Part shown: piece after piece, positions 55,655-63,746 of the stretch | Layout of the letters: each line of letters opens with the position of its first letter | How positions within the stretch are numbered: position 1 is the stretch's first letter | DNA from: a virus | DNA: 64,000 bases | Reading direction: 5' to 3' (one strand) | Virus record (IMG/VR): IMGVR_UViG_3300017788_002882 | Location: 1 to 64,000 of that record | Program-made: the position numbers and the translations under genes | The notes under the pieces: model-generated | What the model was told of the DNA's origin: nothing | The model's database searches: none | The model's input: only the letters and a program-made list of their open reading frames with translations

Positions 55655-55807
55655 ATGGATATTACAAAACACCCAAATCTATATAAAAAGAAACCACTAA
55701 GCGAAGTAAAGAATAGAACAACTTCATATTTGTCTAATACTGAAAAAGCTAGATTAGACAGTGTAATCAACAAGTTTTTTGAATTATTCATCGCTAAACA
55801 TTTGTAA
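55655..55807 (+). CDS. Small basic protein (50 aa)
   Basis: Manual translation MDITKHPNLYKKKPLSEVKNRTTSYLSNTEKARLDSVINKFFELFIAKHL; starts after a 3-nt gap following the Hint gene stop, TAATG overlap with the next gene. Confidence 0.7.
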   Translation: MDITKHPNLYKKKPLSEVKNRTTSYLSNTEKARLDSVINKFFELFIAKHL

Positions 55808-56262
55808 TGGATGCATACAATTACATAAAAAATCATGTTTTTGTAAAACTTAAACCAAGCAAAATTTCGGGTGTAGGAGTCTTTGCGATTAAGGAAATTC
55901 CAATGGATACAGAATTGTTTCATGTGTGGGAAGGTAAAACTGGATTCTATCCCATTTCACAGACCGAATTGAATGATTTGGATTCTGATTTACAAAATCA
56001 CATTCATGATTTATTTTTATTATCTACTCAATTTCCATTAGACACTAATATCTATGTTAAGTTGACTAAAGGTTGTCATTGGATTTACACAAATCCATAC
56101 TATTTTGTTAATAGTGGGTTTTATACTAAAAATGCAAACATTGATAAAGAAAGTATGAAATCAATCGAACATATTAGGAAAGGTGAAGAACTTTTGAGTA
56201 ATTACCAAAGACATGAAAAAATAGATACACAATTTTATGGTTCAGTTAATAAAATTATCTGA
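55807..56262 (+). CDS. SET domain protein
   Basis: LKPSKI.GVGVFA...I, FVNS and I.KGEELL.NY. Confidence 0.8.
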   Translation: MDAYNYIKNHVFVKLKPSKISGVGVFAIKEIPMDTELFHVWEGKTGFYPISQTELNDLDSDLQNHIHDLFLLSTQFPLDTNIYVKLTKGCHWIYTNPYYFVNSGFYTKNANIDKESMKSIEHIRKGEELLSNYQRHEKIDTQFYGSVNKII

Positions 56263-56836
56263 TAAATTCACAATTTACAAATCTCACGACGAGAATTTTT
56301 CTAATATCAAAAACGATTGCATCAAATATGTGAAATTAAATGATTCATTAGTTATTCACCCAACTCCACAAAATAAAAACAATTCAATTTGGGTAGAAAT
56401 AAAATCTGAATGTTTTTTAACCATTAACAACTTAATCAAAAGTCATGTGGAAAAAATTTCTGGTGAAAAATTTAAAAATTACGCTGAACATTTTTGGATA
56501 TATACCCAAACTAAAGGGTTTAATTTAGAATGGATGCATCAACATCTATTAGTTCATCCACCTGGAGTATCATTTATTAAAACAGATTATACTTTCACAT
56601 ACTATTTTCAAACCCCAACTGATATAAGTGGAGATGAGGGTCACATAGTATTTGAAACTGAGGATGGTGTAAGACATAAGTTTTTACCTGAAGAGGGAGA
56701 TTTTTTTATTTTTCCAGCAGACATACGACATACTGCAATACCGACTCCTAACTCTGAGATAGATAGAATCGTTTACGCAGGAAACCTATGTTTAAACATT
56801 GAAAATCAACGAGAAATTGGGACAACTTTAATTTAA
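56237..56836 (+). CDS. Putative 2OG-Fe(II) oxygenase (TIGR02466-like)
   Basis: HQH...YY......G...F....P.EGD..IFP....H...P....R...AGN. Confidence 0.8.
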   Translation: MVQLIKLSDKFTIYKSHDENFSNIKNDCIKYVKLNDSLVIHPTPQNKNNSIWVEIKSECFLTINNLIKSHVEKISGEKFKNYAEHFWIYTQTKGFNLEWMHQHLLVHPPGVSFIKTDYTFTYYFQTPTDISGDEGHIVFETEDGVRHKFLPEEGDFFIFPADIRHTAIPTPNSEIDRIVYAGNLCLNIENQREIGTTLI

Positions 56837-56844
56837 TAAAAATC

Positions 56845-57318
56845 ATGACACCATTTGAATATATAAAAAACTATGTAGTGAGTGCACTAAAGCCAAGTCG
56901 TATTCACGGAGTTGGATTTTTTGCAATCAGAGATATTGAAATTGGTGAATCAATATTTAATCCTTGGTTTGGTGAAAGTGGGATATATTCTATCGACCAC
57001 GATGAATTATTTCAATTACCAACGGAATTACAAAAAACAATGTTAGAAACTTTTGACAATAAAATATTCTATATTAACAAAGAAAACCAAGAACAATACA
57101 TAGAAAAAGAGTATGGTAAAATTTTCTTCCCATTAGAAAAAGGGTTTCATTGGATTTATATTTGGCCGAAAACTTTTATTAATAGTGGATTAAATAACGC
57201 GAATGTCGATACAATTAATCATGTTAATCCAATTGCATTAAGAAAGATATACAGTGGCGAAGAACTATTAGCGAACTACGGCTCAGAATTTAAGACTACT
57301 CCGAAAAACTTTATATAG
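56845..57318 (+). CDS. SET domain protein (paralog of 55807)
   Basis: LKPSRIHGVGFFAIRDI, FINS and ALR.I..GEELL.NYG. Confidence 0.82.
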   Translation: MTPFEYIKNYVVSALKPSRIHGVGFFAIRDIEIGESIFNPWFGESGIYSIDHDELFQLPTELQKTMLETFDNKIFYINKENQEQYIEKEYGKIFFPLEKGFHWIYIWPKTFINSGLNNANVDTINHVNPIALRKIYSGEELLANYGSEFKTTPKNFI

Positions 57319-61293: not shown

Positions 61294-61762
61294 TGCGAAG
61301 GAATGCCAATCCATAATTTGGGACGAAACCAAAAATATAAATAATCATTCCTATGTAAGTGATAGAAGATACAACTCACAGCCAATAAAGTATGATGAAA
61401 ATACTAAATGGATATTCGAAAAACTTTCCGAGTTTTTCCAAGAAGAAACTAAGTTGAAAATCACTGCGATCAAAAATAAAATCCACTTTCATAAATTCGT
61501 TGCAGGAGATTGGTTTGGAAAACATAATGACGCAATTGACAACAGAGTTTATGCGGTTGGGGTTCTATTGAATGAAAATTTTGAGGGGGGTGACTTCAAG
61601 TTGTATAACCCCAACGAATATACATTGAATAAAACCGTTGGCAACGCTTACATATTTGAAGTAAATATAGACCATGAAATCACACCAATTTTAAGTGGAG
61701 AAAGATATTCTTTGTTATGGTTTTTACAGAAAGATAATTTGATTACAAAAACAATAATTTAA
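61265..61762 (+). CDS. 2OG-Fe(II) oxygenase
   Basis: HND, LNE.FEGG.F and HE.TP..SG.RYSL. Confidence 0.85.
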   Translation: MILKEKILFSAKECQSIIWDETKNINNHSYVSDRRYNSQPIKYDENTKWIFEKLSEFFQEETKLKITAIKNKIHFHKFVAGDWFGKHNDAIDNRVYAVGVLLNENFEGGDFKLYNPNEYTLNKTVGNAYIFEVNIDHEITPILSGERYSLLWFLQKDNLITKTII

Positions 61763-62929
61763 ATGGAAATAGATTTTTGGTTTACAGATATATTCAAAGG
61801 GTCAGGTATTCAAGAAATGCTCGAAAAAATAGACAGAAATATTTCATTCAAAAATGTTGATACAGACGTAATTGATTCAAATAAATTGAACCTATTAGTT
61901 TTTGTTTGGGAAACAAGTCCAAAACTTCCATACACAACATACACTACTTCGGATGAATTTATAGATTTACTCAAAAAACTTCAGGATAAAAAGTTTTACT
62001 TTATGGCAGATTTTTCAAGAGAAGCCCACAACAGAGTAGATGAACTTAGTTTATCTTTTTTGAATAAATTGAAATCCAACGGAATAGACATCAACCGATT
62101 GGTTCTTGTTAAAAATGACTCCTTGAAAATCGGTTTACACAAAATGAAATATGAGAATTTCACATTAAATACATTTTTCTTTCCCCACTTTTTCTTATCA
62201 ACATATAACCATCTCAAACAATATATTAACCCCGAAAACGAAAGAACAAAAATAGAACCAGATAAAAAATTTCTGTGTTTAAATCGGAGGGTATTTTATC
62301 ACAAGTATCAAATTATTGAAGAGTTGTTCAAAAGAGGTTTATTGGATGAAACACGGCTAACTTGGGTAGACAATTATACCCCTCTCAAAATGATCGATTT
62401 AGATTTGGCACATAAACTAAAATTAAATGGTCTCGAGTTCAAATCCATACAATTAGAAGGCGATGTTATGTACGGTAGTAGACTATCATATCACGACGAA
62501 TTCTTATTTACAATTAATCCAGATTGGTATTATAATAGTAAAGTAGATATAATTACTGAAACCATGTTATATGACGAGGCGATACATATCACCGAGAAAA
62601 CTTACAAATCAATTTATTTAGGATTACCGTTTGTTGTATCCGCAACCAAAGGACATCTAAAACACCTACGAGACATGGGGTTCAAAACGTTCAATTCAAT
62701 CATAAATGAGGATTATGATGAAATGAATGGTAAAAATAAAGTGAAACACGTTATAGATGCTGCTATAGAATTATCGAACGTATATGATAATCCTGAAGTG
62801 ATAGAAATTTGTAAGTTCAACAGAGAACTCTATTTCGATTCTGAATTTCGGAAGAAAATTTGTAAAAAATTTTTTTTGGATAAATTACATGAAATCAAAG
62901 ATAAATCACACCCTAACTCATTAATCTAA
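61763..62929 (+). CDS. Hypothetical protein, possibly glycosyltransferase-like
   Basis: FLCLNR...H, ITET and TEKTYK.I....PF.......L..L...GFKTF...I.E.YD pattern recalled from phage glycan-modification islands. Confidence 0.5.
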   Translation: MEIDFWFTDIFKGSGIQEMLEKIDRNISFKNVDTDVIDSNKLNLLVFVWETSPKLPYTTYTTSDEFIDLLKKLQDKKFYFMADFSREAHNRVDELSLSFLNKLKSNGIDINRLVLVKNDSLKIGLHKMKYENFTLNTFFFPHFFLSTYNHLKQYINPENERTKIEPDKKFLCLNRRVFYHKYQIIEELFKRGLLDETRLTWVDNYTPLKMIDLDLAHKLKLNGLEFKSIQLEGDVMYGSRLSYHDEFLFTINPDWYYNSKVDIITETMLYDEAIHITEKTYKSIYLGLPFVVSATKGHLKHLRDMGFKTFNSIINEDYDEMNGKNKVKHVIDAAIELSNVYDNPEVIEICKFNRELYFDSEFRKKICKKFFLDKLHEIKDKSHPNSLI

Positions 62930-62933
62930 ATTT

Positions 62934-63746
62934 ATGGAATCATTAAAATACTGGTCTCCCAATGATTTTGAAATTTCATCATTAAGATATAAACTTAATG
63001 GTCAAAAAAGAGTTAAAGAGTTCAGAACTCCAACAAGCACTGAAACTAAATCCTGTACCTATACCTATAATGATTTAGGATATAGAGGAGACTCAATGCA
63101 TAAAAATGGCTTTCGTATTATGTCAATTGGATGTTCATTGACTGAAGGAGTTGGTATTAATGATGATGAAACATGGCCTAATCAATTTACGAAAATGGTT
63201 ACTAATGGTGTGGATTTAAACTTTGGTTGTGGAGGAAGGAGTAATGATTATATTAGTAGGTGTTTATTAAGTTATTATGATTTAATTAAACCCGATTTAG
63301 TTTTAATCATGTACACTTCTTTGGAAAGACGGGAAGTGTGGACTAAAAGTAATGGTGTGAAACCATTTATGCCCCCTTGTTGGGGCTATTTGCGAGACTC
63401 TGATGAAGGAAGAAACACCTGTAATAATTTGGTTGATTTACAAAACGATAATTCTGATTTCATAAATTGGTATAAAAATCATTTGTTAATAAAATTATTC
63501 TTGGAATCGAAAAAATGTAATTGGATTTGGAATGGTTCGTTTGGAGTTCATAAAGAGTTCAAGGAATATAATAGATTTGACGGAGATTATATGAGTGATT
63601 CATTTATTGACTTAGCATCTGATGAGTCCCATCCAGGCTCAAAACATAATAAAGAATACGTTATTAAATTATTCAATCATTTGAAACAAAACTTTCCGAA
63701 TTATTTATCGAATGATTACCATTCTATTAACCAAAAATTATTTTGA
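62934..63746 (+). CDS. SGNH-like hydrolase/acyltransferase
   Basis: YN..GYRG, GCSLTEG.G, N.G.GG.SND and D.SHPG. Confidence 0.75.
   Translation: MESLKYWSPNDFEISSLRYKLNGQKRVKEFRTPTSTETKSCTYTYNDLGYRGDSMHKNGFRIMSIGCSLTEGVGINDDETWPNQFTKMVTNGVDLNFGCGGRSNDYISRCLLSYYDLIKPDLVLIMYTSLERREVWTKSNGVKPFMPPCWGYLRDSDEGRNTCNNLVDLQNDNSDFINWYKNHLLIKLFLESKKCNWIWNGSFGVHKEFKEYNRFDGDYMSDSFIDLASDESHPGSKHNKEYVIKLFNHLKQNFPNYLSNDYHSINQKLF

Follow-up and report, generated by a model that had tools for sequence, protein, structure and literature searches.

A C-terminal tetrapeptide shared by unrelated tailoring enzymes of an uncultivated T4-like phage, and its association with an ATP-grasp/Hint protein

Why should eleven consecutive genes, whose products belong to several different enzyme families, all finish on the same amino acid? 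The question is raised by a stretch of 64 000 nt of viral DNA (the window; positions 1 to 64 000 of IMG/VR record IMGVR_UViG_3300017788_002882), which is the first 64 kb of a 101.7-kb record, 33 % GC. Translation of the open reading frames (ORFs) between 55807 and 62929 gives, in gene order, the C-termini NKII, TTLI, KNFI, TVLI, GKLI, NTLI, KIPI, KTLI, KDII, KTII and NSLI, followed by QKLF on the next gene; terminal Ile is present on all eleven, in nine of them as [LI]-I. A sequence-only reading of the window had listed the same endings, which our translation reproduces together with the endings INQ, LEK, EIN, YTK, RKI, LLK and DNR of the upstream genes, and had described them as a K/T-rich x-[LIF]-I tag at 55807–63746. 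The tag is real, but is better written as [KN]-[S/T/K/N]-[L/I]-[I/L]-COOH, and it reaches beyond those coordinates on both strands. Past 62929 it recurs on the plus-strand genes that follow and, as far as about 97 kb of the record, on genes of the minus-strand arm. Some 20 enzymes of at least six unrelated folds share a tail that approximates to K-T-L-I.

The eleven genes, all on the plus strand, were assigned principally with Pfam, which recognizes five 2-oxoglutarate (2OG)-Fe(II) oxygenases (2OG-FeII_Oxy_3), two SET-domain proteins, one radical S-adenosylmethionine (SAM) enzyme, one Stf0-like sulfotransferase and two proteins without a family. The first is a SET-domain protein (55807..56262, NKII) which scores below the Pfam cut-off for that domain while its paralogue at 56845..57318 (KNFI) scores above it. 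Two 2OG-Fe(II) oxygenase-like proteins (56237..56836, TTLI; 57336..57890, TVLI) and three 2OG-Fe(II) oxygenases (57896..58372, GKLI; 58380..58826, NTLI; 61265..61762, KTII) make up the largest group, the genes at 57896 and 58380 being close paralogues. The remainder are a 274-aa protein without a Pfam family, for which an Atlas lead points to a DUF6071-like phage protein (58823..59647, KIPI), the radical SAM enzyme, of twitch/SPASM-like type by Pfam and family searches (59684..60733, KTLI), the sulfotransferase (60733..61293, KDII) and a 388-aa protein without a Pfam family, with a weak Atlas lead to a GT10 fucosyltransferase-like protein and three paralogues further along the record (61763..62929, NSLI). 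The earlier description of these enzymes as unrelated therefore stands for about six independent folds, but the eleven include paralogue groups, namely the five 2OG-Fe(II) oxygenases and the two SET proteins. Elsewhere in the same region of the record the tag is found on an FkbM methyltransferase, on SGNH/GDSL-like proteins and on a GT2-like protein, with several proteins of unknown fold also among the tagged members of the module, and it is missing from Gmd, epimerases, DegT, Ugd, a carbamoyltransferase, a C-methyltransferase and a cytidylyltransferase.

The record falls into an arm of replication and structural genes (1–45 kb, including a primase and an SbcC-like protein) and a 55-kb island of glycan and tailoring genes that runs from 45 kb to the record end. 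Terminal Ile occurs on 24 of the 121 ORFs of the record, distributed as 1/58 in the arm (1–45.3 kb) versus 23/63 in the island (45.3–101.7 kb; Fisher p = 4.6e-7), an enrichment for which the sequence-only reading had proposed a genome-wide test. The arm is as AT-rich and as compact as the island. At the terminal-Ile frequency found outside the run, the probability of eleven out of eleven is approximately 6e-11, and none of 100 000 shuffled gene orders contained a run of eleven terminal-Ile genes. Within the island, 22 Ile-ending genes have tag-like endings, of which 18 end in [LI]-I and 14 conform to a strict pattern, [KNRQST][KNSTQ][LI][IL] at the C-terminus.

Is the signal carried by the protein or by the DNA? 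This was addressed with 333 distinct 3' ends of tagged genes, taken from this record, two complete relatives and 154 related loci. The penultimate Leu is encoded with much the same codon preferences as Leu inside these genes (TTA.69 vs.64, TTG.14 vs.15, CTT.07 vs.09, CTA.09 vs.08), all three Ile codons are used at the tag terminus, the stop codons are TAA (60 %), TGA (26 %) and TAG (14 %), and no conserved nucleotide was found at any position after the stop. The tag is also present at the operon end that faces a convergent gene (65148–65942 of the record) and within gene overlaps, including those in which, as had been noted before and as the ORF coordinates confirm, the stop lies 26 nt (56262) or 29 nt (61293) inside the next gene. 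Because synonymous codons vary, because the tag is kept at an operon end and in overlaps, and because the AT-rich left arm is without it, we reject an origin in a nucleotide motif, a promoter or translational coupling; the earlier contention that the tag is more than an AT-rich initiation sequence holds, a DNA-level artefact is essentially excluded, and the tag [KN]-[ST/KN]-L-I-COOH is selected as protein. As a separate observation, TGA and TAG stops are commoner in tagged than in untagged genes (40 % vs 24 %) and the terminal Ile codon of tagged genes is skewed to ATA (.62 vs.46 internally), and ATGA-type start/stop overlaps may account for part of both skews.

Conservation in relatives is concentrated at the very end of the chain. 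Orthologues at 54–95 % identity retain the L-I ending while residues further upstream drift; among 120 database homologues of the radical SAM enzyme (72–95 % identity) 119 end in Ile and 102 in KTLI, and I349 is invariant in the family alignment. A family-weighted logo gives K (.46) and N (.22) at the fourth position from the end, S (.26), T (.23), K (.17) and N (.15) at the third (S+T 0.49, K+N 0.32), L (.65) and I (.15) at the penultimate position and I (.63) and L (.23) at the last, and a Lys-rich run (–8 to –4) precedes the last four residues. When all ORFs were clustered, families proved to be bimodal: of 105 with at least four members, 81 are never tagged and approximately 14–19 are tagged in half or more of their members.

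The tag is an appendage on a flexible, disordered tail of 6–14 residues that has been added after the fold. In the AlphaFold2 model of the 2OG oxygenase at 58380–58826, the predicted local distance difference test score (pLDDT) is 91.6 overall and falls below 50 for residues 144–148, the last five, and the homologues of the 2OG oxygenases in the cultured phages syn9, P-RSM4, S-SZBM1, PhiXhv-12 and DLP_6, among them those of the enzyme at 61265..61762, end a few residues past the last strand and have no tail. The same architecture is seen in a tandem triplet of SGNH-like proteins (fam13) that begins immediately after the run, in which the fold ends ...NFPNYL and is followed by 8–12 variable residues and the tag. 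Copy 1 (62934..63746, +) ends in QKLF, a degenerate tag, and copy 3 in SKLI; the middle copy (63749–64537, +, of which 63749..64000 lies in the window) stops directly after the fold, with linker and tag gone. Among 32 orthologues of the family, 19 end x-x-L-I.

Which other gene, if any, accompanies the tag from phage to phage? Loci collected around the radical SAM gene carry the strict tag on 473 of their 1346 ORFs (35 %), as against 4 of 1688 (0.2 %) in primase-anchored loci of related phages. The former loci also contain a gene (fam11) represented in the window by the gene at 52913..55651 (+), whose 912-aa product combines an ATP-grasp ligase with Hint domains. It was found in 57 of the 74 radical-SAM loci, and in all 17 exceptions the available DNA stops within 4.8 kb on the upstream side of the radical SAM gene, where fam11 usually sits; that is, it is present in 57/57 loci with enough upstream DNA to show it. 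Loci of distant relatives of the protein (with identity to the query as low as 28 %) are likewise flanked by genes ending in KTLI, KSLI, KTLL and NKLI. Of the larger records compared (G000 denotes this record, a fragment, and G001 and G002 complete relatives), G001 and G002 encode the ligase/Hint protein, whereas G003–G011, which are complete or large related genomes, do not. Strict tags number 14 in this record, 18 in G001 and 12 in G002, all with the gene, and 2, 4, 5 and 3 in the complete genomes G003, G007, G010 and G011, all without it. Where the gene is lacking, none of the four homologues of tagged families bears the tag (4/4 untagged), whereas in G002, which has it, 19 of 27 such homologues end in a hydrophobic residue followed by I, L or F.

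The related loci also show that homologous gene blocks keep the tag while their enzyme content varies, as the sequence-only reading had expected of a plug-in system. The conserved order begins with a carbamoyltransferase, an adenosine 5'-phosphosulfate (APS) kinase, an HxGH nucleotidyltransferase-like protein, a DUF2061 membrane protein and the ligase/Hint protein (about 496 aa), continues with 6–12 tagged enzymes and closes with GT4+FkbM, methyltransferase and GT9 proteins that are largely untagged, with tag-like endings in some members of the GT9 family. The HxGH protein (fam21) and APS kinase (fam29), both untagged, sit just upstream of the ATP-grasp/Hint gene in most relatives; here they lie at the far left end of the record (1522..2353, –), and given that position either the block has been rearranged or the fragment is permuted. 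A large GT4/GT9 protein (window 49104–52196) ends in HLLK; its counterpart ends in NLLK in G003, which lacks the ligase/Hint gene (315357–319046), and in HLLI in G002 (304520–308152), and a single change of the last residue would create or abolish a tag-like ending on this protein.

The protein that travels with the tag is itself unusual in its layout. An AlphaFold2 model of the family, which corresponds to the N-terminal part of the 912-aa window protein, has two domains (pLDDT 81). In Foldseek searches the N-terminal half, a permuted ATP-grasp fold (about aa 1–285), matched E. coli YjfC/YgiC (7uk6, 7uka) and eukaryotic glutathione synthetases, enzymes of the permuted ATP-grasp amide-ligase type, and the C-terminal half matched bacterial intein-like (BIL)/Hint, Hedgehog and intein structures (6tmm, 2lwy, 1at0), in keeping with the Pfam Hint/intein matches. 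PMC12568646 refers to YgiC and YjfC as peptide-spermidine ligases (its ref. 48, Pederick et al., 2023). E22-x-N24, R108, K171 and R230 are invariant in the 32 sequences of the family alignment, and the fold suggests Mg/ATP-binding and acyl-phosphate roles in catalysis for these residues; an alignment of biotin carboxylase to the ExN region was weak (E = 2.6). A search of NCBIfam and of PDB sequences gave no name for the ligase N-domain, nor for the tagged proteins without a family. The family is large, with 263 clusters (50 % identity) at E < 1e-30.

The first Hint domain lacks Cys1 and retains the terminal His-Asn, and for that reason cleavage by it is predicted only at its own C-terminal end. 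What comes after it is either a hypervariable tail (about 38 residues, about 8 Cys) or a series of additional Hint domains with HN-K at the end. The window protein is of the second kind, with the layout Hint1-AP-Hint2-RF-Hint3-KF-Hint4-K, the junction ...SHN-AP-CFVAGT and the end HN-K. In a count taken over this protein (52913–55651) and 176 relatives (P0121–P0270, loci L001–L074), every one of the 96 Cys-rich tails contains Lys, where about 24 would be expected to be without it; 66 of the 96 have exactly one, often in C-P-K or at the very end. The multi-Hint proteins (n=37) end in HN-K or in a short Lys-containing peptide, with a bare K in 21 of 37. The C-terminus of the tail itself is hypervariable, leaving the tag as the only conserved free carboxylate in the module. 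No Cys-rich peptide was found in the island of this record, the tag set of which is nevertheless large, and the tag is therefore independent of the Cys-rich tail.

Our current working hypothesis, held with moderate confidence, is that the tag is a recognition tag specific to this module, read by one of the components of the module and serving either for docking or as a handle for ligation. We infer, from co-occurrence and fold, both that the tag is bound and what binds it. A component of the module would read the free C-terminus of the tagged enzymes, the likeliest reader being the ATP-grasp domain of the ligase/Hint protein, and the reading would either hold interchangeable enzymes at that protein or make use of their C-termini as ligation handles; the piece downstream of Hint, which always carries Lys, would be a candidate acceptor. 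The ATP-grasp domain is the leading candidate because its gene is the only one that always co-occurs with the tag, because its structural relatives bind peptide C-termini and activate the carboxylate there, and because no phage-encoded PDZ, TPR or S41 protein was found: models for PDZ (PDZ_2), S41 (Peptidase_S41) and TPR (TPR_8) gave no match in G000 or in complete G001, with only one TPR model used, and the TPR_8 search did match control genomes. Of the receptors proposed at the outset, the Hint/ATP-grasp protein always travels with the tag, but the 50-aa protein encoded immediately downstream of it (55655..55807, +; untagged, ending AKHL, Lys-rich in its first half and without Cys) is conserved only in a poly-Hint sub-clade (6 loci), and we reject it as a general reader.

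Several observations weigh against this hypothesis. The logo of the tag is near-identical across ligase/Hint clades that share only about 20 % identity, so that no co-variation points to one reader; terminal Leu does differ (24 % in clade A vs 4 % in the poly-Hint clade), a co-variation that is weak, uncorrected for phylogeny and unusable as evidence for a reader. The large glycosyltransferases and methyltransferases of the same block are without the tag, and several of the tagged families are only 55–70 % tagged. The tagged families may accompany the ligase/Hint gene merely through a shared pathway, and linkage alone cannot separate a tag read by the module from one that is read by the host and used only by the module. 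A complex prediction for the ligase/Hint protein (aa 1–456) with the 32 C-terminal residues of the radical SAM enzyme, ATP and Mg, run without controls, scored 0.08 against a mark of 0.32, a result that we weigh in neither direction. A further caveat is that ORFs are longest-ATG calls; stop positions are unaffected by the choice of start.

A more specific version, which we entertain only tentatively, is a new chemistry of protein conjugation in which the tag provides the reacting carboxylate. On every tagged enzyme, the C-terminal Ile carboxylate would be activated by the YgiC/glutathione-synthetase-like ATP-grasp domain and then joined to the Lys, or to the new N-terminus, of the piece released by Hint. 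One fast-evolving peptide, or in this record a bare Lys, would in this way be attached post-translationally to 10–20 different enzymes; in a variant of the idea, each enzyme would end up tethered to the ligase/Hint protein itself. The polarity would be opposite to that of ubiquitin, with the C-terminus of the target joined to an amine of the modifier. The support for such a chemistry is circumstantial, and lies in the obligatory Lys downstream of Hint and in the tag being the only conserved free carboxylate.

Alternatively, the tag may be read by the host, as a degron or adaptor site for recognition of the ClpX, FtsH or Tsp type that times or limits enzyme activity, a possibility that we consider unlikely. 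The negative searches for phage-encoded PDZ, TPR and S41 readers fit a host reader, and the tail, with its Lys-rich –8 to –4 segment and hydrophobic end, resembles known C-terminal degrons such as that of the MuA type (RRKKAI-COOH). However, the tag is confined to one module, and homologues in related phages that lack the ligase/Hint gene, presumably with similar hosts, are untagged. A self-destruct signal kept under strong purifying selection on about 20 enzymes, and not on the neighbouring sugar-nucleotide enzymes, also needs an extra assumption.

An address for packaging into the virion or into a compartment, which would load the enzymes into the capsid or another phage assembly, is in our view improbable. 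Shared terminal peptides on unrelated cargo are a hallmark of such systems, and the phage is T4-like: the CheckV completeness of the 101.7-kb record is 33 %, a profile search finds the T4-type Gp23 capsid gene in complete relatives of 321–336 kb, and on these grounds the record is a fragment of an uncultivated freshwater T4-like jumbo phage. The T4 signal is, however, N-terminal and cleaved, where this tag is C-terminal; one would hardly expect a virion to carry tailoring enzymes that need cofactors (radical SAM, 2OG/Fe); and related T4-like genomes that share the structural genes but lack the ligase/Hint gene show no excess of tags. More improbable still is an intrinsic role of the tail in each enzyme, as a lid or a homo-oligomerization element acting independently in each family. 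C-terminal tails do often regulate 2OG oxygenases and methyltransferases, but here the same four residues are found on six or more unrelated folds, and the tail is disordered in the model and absent from homologues outside the module. That the endings have no shared function, and reflect paralogy, 3'-end exchange or an AT-rich or coupling constraint on the DNA, can largely be dismissed: seven of the eleven genes do fall in two paralogue groups, K, N, I, L and F are residues with A/T-only codons and many stops abut the next start, but at least six Pfam-distinct folds are tagged, codons and stops vary between unconserved flanks, the tag is kept at an operon end and within overlaps, and neither the AT-rich, compact arm (1/58 Ile) nor related phage loci (0.2 % tagged) show it.

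Other features of the record bear on its origin and on the pathway concerned. A capsid model of the nucleocytoplasmic large DNA viruses gave no match in the record but left its control unmatched too, and is thus uninformative. ARAGORN found no tRNA gene within window 1–64000. A comparison with 50 697 GenBank phage records gave nothing for the window at DNA level, and nothing at protein level for the radical SAM enzyme or the ligase/Hint protein, and so no cultured representative is known; uncultivated freshwater jumbo phages of this sort are plentiful in lake metagenomes. A Nod-factor-like tailoring set is encoded in the island, consisting of the APS kinase, the HxGH protein, which is possibly for sulfate activation, the Stf0-like sulfotransferase, the carbamoyltransferase and FkbM methyltransferases (window 1522–2353, –, and 60733–61293; record 66052–67719, –). 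Further along, two tandem paralogues (record 93312–96175, –) fuse a eukaryote-type GT7 (β-1,4-galactosyltransferase-like) to a concanavalin/LamG-like domain, and an Anp1-like gene of the mannosyltransferase family lies near them at 98952–99623 of the record.

It is tempting to speculate on what such a tag would provide. If the ATP-grasp/Hint protein reads it, phages could swap tailoring enzymes freely and yet keep one pathway, and four residues would amount to a plug-in handle with which arbitrary enzymes are recruited and possibly ligated. Irrespective of its reader, the tag is of practical use as a marker that separates members of the module from the neighbouring sugar-nucleotide enzymes. 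Neither the tag nor the ligase/Hint fusion was described in any paper searched in full text or in the family libraries searchable, and a phage module in which at least 15 unrelated families of tailoring enzymes bear the same C-terminal tetrapeptide is to that extent undescribed.

Eukaryotic organelles, encapsulins and replisome hubs all offer examples of short terminal peptides used for addressing or docking. The peroxisomal targeting signal PTS1 (S-K-L-COOH, bound by the TPR domain of Pex5) shares with the tag a free C-terminal motif of three to four residues, on a flexible basic linker, across unrelated enzymes whose folds are otherwise unaltered. It differs in its consensus, [SAC]-[KRH]-[LM] as against [KN]-[ST]-L-I, in which the penultimate residue is Leu and not basic, and in its setting, the tag belonging to a bacterial virus with no known compartment and no TPR protein detected in this record or the complete relative. 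Class I PDZ ligands (x-[S/T]-x-hydrophobic-COOH) accommodate about half of the tags (K-T-L-I, K-S-L-I, N-S-L-I), but the other half carry K, N or Q in place of S/T, and no PDZ domain was detected in this record or G001; bacterial PDZ proteins are mostly envelope proteases. As regards packaging systems, the capsid-targeting sequence of T4 is N-terminal and is cleaved by the prohead protease, and the shell gene of encapsulins is adjacent to that of the cargo; no shell-like gene is conserved in the block.

Closer in logic are systems that bring variable proteins to one partner by means of a short peptide. In the ribosomally synthesized and post-translationally modified peptides (RiPPs), through leader peptides and RiPP recognition elements (RREs), and in docking between non-ribosomal peptide synthetases or polyketide synthases, variable tailoring enzymes are brought in this way to one substrate or scaffold. 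The polarity is inverted here, in that the enzymes carry the peptide, and the 'leader' would be a 450-residue ligase/Hint protein; in the tagged enzymes Pfam gave only catalytic domains and no RRE, remote RRE folds not having been searched by structure. The C-terminal tails of T4 and bacterial replisome proteins (gp43, gp33 and gp55 on the gp45 clamp; clamp-binding motifs) let several unrelated partners in a common process attach to one hub through similar short end peptides, an arrangement from which the present one differs in sequence, in process (tailoring enzymes instead of DNA enzymes) and in hub. Lastly, the C-terminus-directed ATP-grasp ligases (E. coli YgiC/YjfC, glutathione synthetase, RimK acting on ribosomal protein S6, and tubulin-tyrosine ligase) recognize a peptide by its final residues and free carboxylate, and wherever the tag occurs a ligase of the YgiC/glutathione-synthetase structural class is encoded too. 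It differs from them in being fused to Hint and a Lys-bearing tail, and in that its putative substrates would be some 10–20 whole enzymes.

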